Shown here piece by piece: positions 22,366-23,384 of a DNA stretch of 57,761 bases. A model generated the notes under the pieces. The model did no database searches. It was given only the letters and a program-made list of their open reading frames with translations, and had not been told where the DNA came from. The position numbers were made by a program, and so were the translations under genes. The stretch's first letter is position 1. The number at the start of each line of letters is the position of its first letter. Source of the DNA: an uncultured bacterium (GTDB lineage: Bacteria; Latescibacterota; Latescibacteria; Latescibacterales; Latescibacteraceae); the NCBI GenBank assembly GCA_964456585.1, contig CAYWBT010000001.1, positions 1 to 57,761 of the forward strand. Reading direction: 5' to 3'.

Positions 22366-23094
22366 ATGGGAGAAATACCGGTTTCCACATGGATTTTCAT
22401 CGCGAAGTATATCGGCGCAGCCCTCGCAGTGGGGATCGCTGCTTTCGGCAGTGCCTATGGCGAAGGATACATCGCCTTCAAGGCTTCCGAAGCGATCGCC
22501 CGTCAGCCGAAAGCCTCGAGCGAAATCGTGCGCACCATGCTCATTACCCAGGCTGTCGCTGAAACGGCGGGAATCTTCGGACTTTTAATGTCGATTATCC
22601 TTCTGTTCGTGGCAAAAACCGAGGGTGGTATGGCGTTTGCAGTGGCACTGCTCGCTTCCGGTCTCTGCATGGGTGTTGGCGCGATTGGTGCCGGTGTCGG
22701 CTCCGGACAGGCGGGAGGTGCGGCTTGCGAATCCATCGGTCGTTTCCCGCGGCTCTCTTCCAGCATTCTTTTGACAACGCTCGTGGGACAGGCGATTGTC
22801 CAGACCGGATGTATTTTCGCACTCGTCATCTCGATGCTGCTCAGCCTCATGTCTCGCGACACAGACAGCATCGTCATTATCGGGGCGACGCTCGGCGCGG
22901 GTTTCGCCATGGGGTTCGGTGCAATCGGTGCCGGTATCAGCACAGGCTTTACCGCGAAAAAAGCGATCTGGGGCATGTCGCGCGATTCACGTATCGGCGG
23001 CGTGCTCACCAGGACGATGCTTCTTGGGCAGGCGGTTGCACATGCGGGAGCGATTTATTCACTCATTATTGCATTTATTTTACTCTTTCAATAA
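22366..23094 (+). CDS. Triplicated (three-hairpin, six-TM) ATP synthase c-subunit fusion with a single ion-binding carboxylate
   Basis: Start at ATG 22366 (MGEIPV...), after a GAAAGGG RBS. It contains three tandem units, each with a Gly-rich helix 1 (G.G.G.G), a polar loop (ARQP / GRFP / SRDS) and a helix 2. The position of the conserved ion-binding Glu is QAVAETAGIF in unit 1, QAIVQTGCIF in unit 2 and QAVAHAGAIY in unit 3. The frame is continuous with no stops. Confidence 0.8.
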   Translation: MGEIPVSTWIFIAKYIGAALAVGIAAFGSAYGEGYIAFKASEAIARQPKASSEIVRTMLITQAVAETAGIFGLLMSIILLFVAKTEGGMAFAVALLASGLCMGVGAIGAGVGSGQAGGAACESIGRFPRLSSSILLTTLVGQAIVQTGCIFALVISMLLSLMSRDTDSIVIIGATLGAGFAMGFGAIGAGISTGFTAKKAIWGMSRDSRIGGVLTRTMLLGQAVAHAGAIYSLIIAFILLFQ

Positions 23095-23126
23095 AGATTT
23101 TTTAGCCGCGAAGAAAGGAGAAAAAC

Positions 23127-23384
23127 ATGGCAGTTGAAGGTGTACATCTCGTCGATATGGCCCGGTATCTTGGCGCCGGACTCTGTATGGGAATGGGTGC
23201 TCTCGGGCCTGGCCTGGGAGAAGGTTTCGCCGCCGGGAAGGCGTGCGAAGGTATCGCGCGTGCTCCTGAGCAGGCTCCTCTTCTAACCAGAACGATGCTT
23301 GTCGGCCAGGCGGTTTCGGAGTCAACCGGTATCTATTCGCTCGTTGTTTCACTGCTGCTGATCTTCGTTGTCGGTTCGCAGTAA
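23127..23384 (+). CDS. atpE: F-type ATP synthase subunit c (canonical single hairpin)
   Basis: 85-aa ORF preceded by an [24 protein letters not shown] helix 1, ARAPE loop, and [19 protein letters not shown] helix 2 with the conserved Glu. Confidence 0.92.

Follow-up and report, generated by a model that had tools for sequence, protein, structure and literature searches.

A three-hairpin c subunit gene in a Latescibacterota atp operon, candidate component of a Na+-coupled hybrid rotor

The ion/ATP ratio of an F-type ATP synthase is set by the number of ion-binding sites in its c-ring, and governs both the gradient needed for ATP to be made and the steepness of the gradient that ATP can build. 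To our knowledge, a ratio lowered by fusion of c hairpins and loss of sites has hitherto been known among F-type enzymes only in Acetobacterium woodii and close acetogen relatives, where a two-hairpin subunit has one lost site. Here we describe c3 (atpE1-like), our label for a fused three-hairpin c subunit with a single ion-binding carboxylate, encoded at positions 22366-23094 in the F1Fo ATP synthase operon of an uncultured Latescibacteraceae bacterium (phylum Latescibacterota, WS3). The whole stretch of DNA analysed, hereafter the window, is 57,761 nucleotides long (GenBank assembly GCA_964456585.1, contig CAYWBT010000001.1, forward strand).

The atp operon and the fused c subunit gene

The genes of the operon run in the order atpI-atpB-c3-canonical c-atpF-atpH-atpA-atpG (Table 1). 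As an earlier note on this DNA had described, a single open reading frame (ORF) lies between atpB and an 85-residue atpE. It starts with ATG, 17 bases past the stop of the 280-residue subunit a gene, ends 32 bases ahead of the 85-residue c gene, and encodes 242 residues on the + strand without any internal stop codon. The protein scores 138 bits against the Pfam family PF00137 (ATP-synt_C; cutoff 24, E = 9.4e-41) over three separate stretches, and the NCBIfam models for F0F1 subunit C gave three matches (TIGR01260, 99 bits, cutoff 43.95; NF009999, 168 bits, cutoff 124). The three hairpins are 31-33% identical to each other and 40-44% identical to the canonical c encoded downstream. An AlphaFold2 model built on a 37-sequence alignment (predicted local distance difference test score, pLDDT, 94.5; predicted template modelling score, pTM, 0.88) contains six helices, at residues 6-46, 48-82, 89-126, 128-161, 169-206 and 208-241, which form three hairpins. 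The three Pfam matches and six helices that the earlier note had expected were thus both obtained.

Profile score, helix-loop-helix hairpin fold and a place beside subunit a in an F1Fo operon are all those of an F-type subunit c. A helix-2 carboxylate in every hairpin is the feature that c3 lacks: the position is held by Glu66 in hairpin 1 (AVAETAG), Gln146 in hairpin 2 (AIVQTGC) and His226 in hairpin 3 (AVAHAGA), exactly the motifs read in the earlier note. Hairpin 1 retains E33, V64, E66 and T67, with Ala and Phe at the places equivalent to T67 and Y70 of the canonical c. In most Latescibacterota the partner face of hairpin 3 consists of V224, A227, G228 and Y231, so that in canonical numbering Val63 and Tyr70 are kept and Ser66 and Thr67 are lost. 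The helix-1 ligand of this hairpin is Thr or Ser, not Glu or Gln, and its loop has lost the R-Q/N-P motif and reads SRDS.

Among proteins of known structure, the best sequence match to c3 is c1 of A. woodii (4BEM_J, E = 2e-23). Hairpins 1 and 2 of the two proteins align with each other, the Glu of AVAETAG with that of AVAETSG and the Gln of AIVQTGC with that of AVAQTTG. A Foldseek search with the c3 model also placed 4BEM_J at the top (E = 9.6e-8, target-normalised template modelling (TM) score 0.81, root-mean-square deviation (rmsd) 1.6 Å), followed by V-type 16-kDa proteolipids. No solved chain in that search spans more than two of the three hairpins, and the query-normalised TM scores do not exceed 0.61; single c3 hairpins superimpose on 1YCE and 4BEM_A with an rmsd of 1.1-1.3 Å. 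The c1 protein, which the earlier note had named as the closest F-type precedent, is thus the nearest solved structure by both sequence and fold. Together with the Glu-then-Gln pattern and the place of the gene between atpB and canonical c, c3 is best read as a homologue of c1, the 'V-type-like' two-hairpin subunit of an F/V hybrid rotor, extended by a third hairpin.

The canonical c next to c3 bears the ligand set E32, V63, E65, S66, T67 and Y70, numbered exactly as in the Ilyobacter and Fusobacterium proteins. In the c11 ring of Fusobacterium nucleatum, the Na+ ligands come from two neighbouring subunits: one contributes Glu32 and Glu65, the adjacent one Ser66 O-gamma and the Val63 carbonyl. 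A water molecule that Thr67 holds also binds the ion, and Glu65 receives hydrogen bonds from Tyr70 and Ser66 (PMC3692424). Since the canonical c carries this full motif, the enzyme is predicted to be Na+-coupled. The F. nucleatum protein (3ZK1) is also the third-best match for c3 in the PDB. A strong AAAGGAG Shine-Dalgarno (SD) sequence stands at optimal spacing ahead of the canonical c gene in eight of eight Latescibacterota loci, with an anti-SD duplex of -8.2 to -8.7 kcal/mol, whereas in the same loci that of c3 is weak and variable (0 to -7.0 kcal/mol). This contrast hints at few c3 and many c per ring, as in A. woodii.

The remaining genes around c3 are those of an F-type enzyme. The genes atpD (beta) and atpC (epsilon) were not found within the 57.7-kb window; an operon without them is common to other Latescibacterota loci, and in other phyla the beta gene directly follows gamma. 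Here, in the interval 27228-27430, atpG is followed by the terminator-like hairpin, after which comes a DUF1015 gene. Directly upstream of atpI lie genes for an M23 peptidase and a bactofilin (19594-21059), a synteny kept in all Latescibacterota loci; both genes also occur in a Bacillota metagenome-assembled genome (MAG; locus L012), and bactofilin alone in a Deltaproteobacteria MAG (L018), both MAGs having multi-hairpin c genes. No Na+ pump of the Rnf or Nqr type was found in the part of the window scanned. Elsewhere in the window, a 593-residue ORF at 17648-19429 has no Pfam match at E <= 0.01. Two CCG cysteine-rich domains with a 4Fe-4S dicluster domain (HdrD/GlpC-like) at 48021-49421, and a tRNA-Ser(TGA) at 55122-55207, have no apparent tie to c3.

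Table 1 Features of the atp operon and of the c3 gene, in window coordinates
Feature	Position	Strand	Evidence and remarks
atpI, assembly factor, ATP-synt_I	21084..21500	+	PF03899, 35.7 bits, E = 1.2e-8; upstream of atpB in all Latescibacterota loci
atpB, Fo subunit a (stator, ion channel)	21507..22349	+	PF00119, 156 bits; conserved Arg motif SLSFRLFGNILGG in translation
c3, fused three-hairpin c, 242 residues	22366..23094	+	PF00137 three times; six helices in AlphaFold2 model; best PDB match 4BEM_J
Hairpin 1 of c3, residues 1-84	22366..22617	+	E33 in helix 1, E66-T67 in helix 2; Glu66 codon 22561-22563; sole carboxylate-bearing hairpin
Hairpin 2 of c3, residues 85-164	22618..22857	+	Gln146 replaces carboxylate, codon 22801-22803; followed by Thr147
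Hairpin 3 of c3, residues 165-242	22858..23094	+	His226 replaces carboxylate, codon 23041-23043; partner face V224/A227/G228/Y231
Canonical single-hairpin c (atpE2-like), 85 residues	23127..23384	+	PF00137 once, 65.5 bits; Na+ motif E32/V63/E65/S66/T67/Y70
atpF, subunit b	23532..24008	+	PF00430, 100 bits; alternative start 23472
atpH, subunit delta/OSCP	24228..24764	+	PF00213, 112 bits
atpA, F1 alpha	24843..26354	+	62-83% identity to alpha genes of related loci; ATP-synt_ab domains on orthologous contig
atpG, F1 gamma, last operon gene	26364..27227	+	Orthologues in related loci; PF00231 matches orthologous contig
Terminator-like hairpin after atpG	27254..27278	+	9-pair stem (6 GC), then T-rich tail; consensus match only

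Conservation of c3 and the wider family of multi-hairpin subunits

The same fusion in the same gene order was found in seven other Latescibacterota assemblies (L001-L007), in line with the search of related genomes that the earlier note had suggested. All Latescibacterota loci run M23 peptidase, bactofilin, atpI, atpB, three-hairpin c, a c of 84-86 residues, atpF, atpH, atpA and atpG. The nearest are that of Candidatus Latescibacter anaerobius SCGC AAA252-E07 (89% identity) and those of several Latescibacterota MAGs, one of them on a 1.68-Mb contig, and the fusion is seen in independent single-cell, short-read and long-read assemblies. Homologues of c3 in the NCBI, ENA, JGI and Logan assemblies form about 60 protein clusters of 231-248 residues, at 58-99% identity.

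Alignment of 37 orthologues, at identities down to 58%, revealed no stop codon and about 60 invariant positions, among them E33, E66 and T67 in hairpin 1, T147 in hairpin 2 and Y231 in hairpin 3; Q146 is nearly invariant. Approximate pairwise ratios of nonsynonymous to synonymous substitution rates (dN/dS) over eight loci are about 0.08, 0.08 and 0.10 for hairpins 1, 2 and 3, and 0.05 for the canonical c, a clear indication of purifying selection on all three c3 hairpins. An internal start at Met89, which has a GAGG upstream and would give a separate two-hairpin product with Gln and His, was considered and rejected: the orthologues read GGL, GGS, GGA or GTN there, and internal translation initiation is unlikely.

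The number of hairpins was counted in the 120 best homologues of c3, of which 63 have three, 36 four and 21 five. When each protein is written as the string of residues at its successive carboxylate positions, EQH is the most frequent (50 of the 120), followed by EQQE (18), EQQQQ (15), EQQQ (9), EQI (8), EQQQE (6) and EQEE (3), other patterns being rarer (EQV, 1). Histidine accordingly occupies the hairpin 3 position in 50 of the 63 three-hairpin homologues, with Ile, Val and Glu as variants. The Glu-then-Gln start is shared by 200 related proteins. When 1.84 billion representatives were searched exhaustively with HMMER, 73 clusters came out at E <= 1e-30, within which E-Q-H makes up a single cluster at 50% identity whose named members are all Latescibacterota.

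In every locus that was fetched, the multi-hairpin gene stands between atpB and a canonical E32/E65/S-T66/T67/Y70 c gene, the latter being present in 20 of 20 complete loci from five phyla. Outside the Latescibacterota the patterns are E-Q-E, E-T-E, E-Q, E-E, E-Q-E-E, E-Q-Q-E, E-Q-Q-Q and E-Q-Q-Q-Q. Marinamargulisbacteria (the L008-L013 group) have an E-Q-E form ahead of the canonical c, Planctomycetota (L014, L020 and L021) an E-T-E form as well as a two-hairpin E-Q form, the Bacillota MAG (L012) an E-E form ahead of the canonical c, and Desulfobacterales (L016-L019) four or five hairpins, up to E-Q-Q-Q-Q. In a rough neighbour-joining tree of single hairpins, built without support values, the hairpins sort by position and not by phylum: first hairpins fall together, internal ones together, and last ones with canonical c. 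Because they group in this way, the tree indicates a shared origin, or transfer, of the multi-hairpin architecture.

The earlier note knew of no three-hairpin, one-site c encoded beside a canonical c in a bacterial F-type operon. This stands as regards published descriptions, since none of an F-type c subunit with more than two hairpins was met in the full-text literature searched, although an earlier mention cannot be excluded; the F-type fusions there are the two-hairpin c1 of A. woodii and Clostridium aceticum only, and archaeal subunits have one, two, three or 13 hairpins. It does not stand as regards uniqueness, given the relatives with two to five hairpins in several anaerobic phyla.

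Other multi-hairpin proteins were encountered during the census. Of all multi-hairpin c-like groups in it, the largest is a four-hairpin 'E-Q-E-D' type of about 318 residues (44 clusters at 50% identity), whose genes (L028 2126-3079, L029 and L030 8001-8963, L031 2948-3907) are immediately preceded by genes for ATP-synt_A and a Mur-ligase-like protein. Within 8 kb of them there is neither a canonical c gene nor one for b, delta, alpha, gamma or beta, even on a 1.76-Mb contig. The group looks like an orphan 'a + c4' two-gene module of unassigned function and, its context being different, it was dropped as evidence on hybrid F-type rings. Giant all-Glu proteolipids with 15 (P0128, 1139 residues), 13 (P0143, 968), 8 (P0196, 631), 7 (P0186, 524) and 5 hairpins (P0123, 434) are presumably single-chain or near-single-chain rotors like that of Methanopyrus. 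In the most divergent three-hairpin orthologue (P0120, L027 6001-6717), hairpin 3 bears Glu and closely resembles canonical c, and the contig ends 2 nucleotides past the gene. This protein may represent an E-Q-E form of ancestral type, or else the downstream c gene may have been collapsed into it during assembly; since the contig end allows the latter, it was not used as a clue to the origin of hairpin 3.

A probable hybrid rotor and its alternatives

We infer from homology, gene order and conservation that c3 is probably a rotor subunit of a Na+-coupled F1Fo ATP synthase/ATPase, with a hybrid ring of the A. woodii type and fewer Na+ per ATP. In such an enzyme, few copies of c3 (probably one, as in A. 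woodii) would join many canonical c subunits in one heteromeric ring. Each c3 would fill three hairpin positions with one ion site and two adjacent ion-blind positions, removing two Na+ sites from the ring, or possibly three if the site following hairpin 3 is weakened. A ring of N hairpins with one c3 would thus carry N-2 ions per turn and use fewer Na+ for every three ATP. For illustration, N = 11 would give 9 sites and 3.0 Na+/ATP, whereas a homomeric c11 would use 3.67 and the A. woodii ring uses 3.3. The earlier note had also proposed a ring stoichiometry restricted to steps of three hairpins; this does not follow, because a single-hairpin c is co-encoded and can fill any remainder.

The lower ratio would allow ATP hydrolysis to build a larger Na+ gradient and, in the direction of synthesis, would yield more ATP per ion when the gradient is sufficient. 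It would suit an anaerobic fermenter with Na+-coupled sugar uptake. Indeed, from single amplified genomes Latescibacteria have been predicted to live as anaerobic fermenters, with Na+ symport as their route of glucose and galactose uptake, in a study that does not discuss the ATP synthase (PMC4454575). In the A. woodii literature the reduced ratio is instead read as adapting the cell to life at low energy (PMC7911925). For Bacillus PS3, engineered c10 rings made as a single chain do function, and two impaired sites cut their activity least when adjacent (PMC8809890). Since adjacent impaired sites are the best tolerated in these rings, the clustering of dead sites in one chain makes mechanistic sense.

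Further indirect support for a mixed ring comes from the distribution of Tyr70. Positions 63, 66, 67 and 70 share a single face of the helix, and in F. nucleatum this face forms the 'adjacent subunit' half of the site (PMC3692424). Among the 200 proteins that begin with Glu and Gln, none of the 200 first hairpins has Tyr70, as against 31 of 329 internal ones and 191 of 200 last ones, whatever residue the last hairpin has at its own site. On the simplest reading, the face of hairpin k completes the site whose carboxylate sits on hairpin k+1, which suggests that contact with a live site in the ring, most naturally that of a canonical c, is what preserves the canonical face of the last hairpin. 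If this rule holds, the canonical c that follows c3 would lack two ligands, hairpin 3 having Ala227 and Gly228 at the places of Ser66 and Thr67, and its site might be weakened, a suggestion in which our confidence is low to moderate.

It is unlikely that c3 and canonical c instead form separate homomeric rings, for example a (c3)4 ring with 12 hairpins and 4 sites beside a c11 ring, giving two enzyme populations with very different gear ratios. In favour of this, both genes share one operon, where their co-assembly is a supposition, and archaeal multi-hairpin proteolipids do form rings alone (PMC9171764). Against it, A. woodii c1, the nearest homologue to have been characterised, sits in a mixed ring at 1:9, canonical c is co-encoded at every complete locus, and the weak SD sequence of c3 beside the strong one of c argues against c3 being made in ring-filling amounts. 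The Tyr70 face, on the last hairpin and never on the first, points the same way, yet it is not decisive alone, as in a ring of c3 only the last hairpin would also abut the live site of hairpin 1. We regard as improbable a role outside the working rotor, whether as a scaffold or nucleator of c-ring assembly, a regulator or a decaying paralogue. Such a role would agree with the loss of two of three carboxylates and of the loop motif in hairpin 3, but it fits poorly with the strong purifying selection on all three hairpins, the invariant residues of the 37 orthologues, the persistence of the architecture across phyla and the fact that c1 is a structural member of its ring (4BEM).

A further reading, to which we give little credence, is that hairpin 3 is not ion-blind, His226 or a Glu-His pair binding or relaying H+ or Na+, so that c3 would have two sites or an altered specificity. 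The conservation of His noted above speaks for it, as do the invariant Thr147 on the neighbouring face and a subclade (P0068, P0070, P0090, P0095, P0101 and P0112) that has 'AVEHAGA' for 'AVAHAGA' at residues 223-229, with Glu immediately ahead of His. Other orthologues, however, have Ile or Val at this position, which are unable to bind ions, and the helix-1 ligand is not of the Glu/Gln type. Moreover, a loaded histidine would carry a positive charge and so have a polarity unsuited to the carboxylate/Arg mechanism. That c3 is an artefact, three tandem c genes wrongly joined in assembly or sequencing, can be set aside almost entirely. Tandem c genes do exist in A. woodii, and in one long-read MAG ('uncultured delta proteobacterium', L022 7628-8601) a multi-hairpin c gene is fragmented into four short ORFs, probably by frameshift errors. 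Collapse of a repeat is impossible because the hairpins are only about one-third identical, and the same uninterrupted ORF recurs in a single-cell genome, in many MAGs and on the 1.68-Mb contig, its orthologues having neither stop codons nor conserved internal starts, so that the sequence data, as far as they go, exclude an artefact.

Several points nevertheless weigh against the hybrid ring. Incorporation of c3 into a ring, the c3:c ratio and the size of the ring are all inferred in this reading. The synonymous rate dS is saturated (about 1.6-2.1), which leaves the dN/dS values approximate, and the SD comparison is weakened by doubt over the start codons of some c3 orthologues. The Tyr70 pattern could reflect descent of the last hairpin from canonical c and not function, and the conserved His226 with its 'VEHAG' variants may mean that hairpin 3 is not simply inert. 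Finally, the view taken is that of the window, with atpD and atpC outside it.

If the hybrid ring is accepted for c3, the wider family takes on a meaning that we put forward tentatively, as a serious possibility that falls short of being probable. Several anaerobic phyla (Latescibacterota, Marinamargulisbacteria, Planctomycetota and Desulfobacterales) may build heteromeric rings from canonical c and c1-like subunits of three, four or five hairpins, with runs of two to four ion-blind positions (E-Q-H, E-Q-Q-Q, E-Q-Q-Q-Q), as a graded 'gearbox' family in which the E-Q-H form would also weaken the next site through Ala/Gly at positions 66/67. The five-hairpin E-Q-Q-Q-Q forms would put four consecutive ion-blind positions in a ring. 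Ion/ATP ratios would then lie well below that of any characterised F-type enzyme, and the rotor would turn roughly 65-160 degrees without binding an ion, a test for models of Fo torque that assume one ion per step. The conserved c3 itself shows the strategy of fusion and site loss to be more widespread and more graded than a single model organism suggested, and its four- and five-hairpin relatives strengthen the case; all of them provide natural constructs for asking how many adjacent ion-blind positions a rotor tolerates, and with what effect on synthesis and on pumping. They are also relevant to metabolic reconstructions of uncultured anaerobes, whose ATP yields are computed from an assumed ion/ATP ratio.

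Comparison with known rotor subunits

Archaeal A1Ao enzymes offer the nearest parallel in hairpin number, their triplicated proteolipid K having, like c3, three hairpins in one chain and fewer carboxylates than hairpins. In Methanocaldococcus jannaschii this protein presumably keeps two carboxylates, not one as in c3. An archaeal origin of the c3 triplication was considered and rejected: the K-type model NF004913 (PRK06271) spans residues 13-241 of c3 and scores 69.1 bits, far below its cutoff of 211 and below the 168 bits of NF009999. Because of this gap, the triplication is, on profile scores, an F-type expansion independent of the archaeal one, in agreement with the separateness that the earlier note had implied. 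Furthermore, the context of an A1Ao or V-type operon is absent at the c3 locus, where the neighbours are F-type a, b, delta (OSCP), alpha and gamma, and unlike for K a single-hairpin c is co-encoded. Three-hairpin c subunits and multi-hairpin proteolipids that form rings alone are mentioned for archaeal enzymes in PMC9171764. Membership in the N-ATPases (alternate F1Fo enzymes, AtpR/AtpQ) was likewise rejected: with the models for the c and a subunits and for AtpR, the scores were 104 bits for TIGR03322 (cutoff 130.85), 114 for TIGR03306 (302) and 19.5 for AtpR (26), all below threshold.

The V-type 16-kDa proteolipids (for instance Vo c of yeast and human, NtpK of Enterococcus hirae, 2BL2) share with c3 the fusion of hairpins as well as a lower site number, and their two-hairpin fold is similar (target-normalised TM score 0.78-0.88). 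Unlike c3, they have two hairpins, belong to V-type enzymes and show ion-blind positions alternating with live ones, and they are 19-24% identical to it. The fused c-rings of Bacillus PS3 (Mitome et al., eLife 2022) resemble c3 in that linked hairpins work as a rotor and impaired sites are tolerated; these rings, however, are artificial and H+-coupled, and their E56D sites are slowed rather than abolished. With the F. nucleatum c subunit (PDB 3ZK1) the canonical c described here shares a complete two-carboxylate Na+ ligand set, but the F. nucleatum ring is a homomeric c11 and no fused subunit is encoded with it.

The closest counterpart is c1 of A. woodii, whose ring consists of one c1 and nine single-hairpin c2/3, which gives its 11 hairpins 10 Na+ sites and a ratio of 3.3 Na+/ATP (PMC9171764; PMC7793690). 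In C. aceticum the layout is atpI-B-E1-E2, and c1 reads 'Q...ET' in hairpin 1 and 'Q...QT' in hairpin 2 (PMC7911925). Like A. woodii c1, c3 fuses F-type hairpins in one chain, with Glu (A-E-T) in hairpin 1 and Gln-Thr in hairpin 2, and has Phe at position 70 of the first hairpin and Tyr in the last; as in both acetogens, its gene lies between atpB and a canonical c gene with the Na+ motif, with atpI upstream. Unlike A. woodii c1, which has exactly two hairpins, four transmembrane helices and about 18 kDa, c3 has three hairpins, six helices and 242 residues, and its extra hairpin bears His, so that one of its three hairpins has a site and two neighbouring positions are ion-blind. The canonical c beside it is the two-carboxylate variant with Glu32, not Gln32; Ala-Gly stands at positions 66/67 of hairpin 3; the host belongs to another phylum, Latescibacterota; and atpD and atpC lie outside the operon. 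Thus c3 apparently adds a third, ion-blind hairpin to a hybrid-rotor subunit of the A. woodii type, within a graded family of two- to five-hairpin subunits that appears to have gone undescribed.

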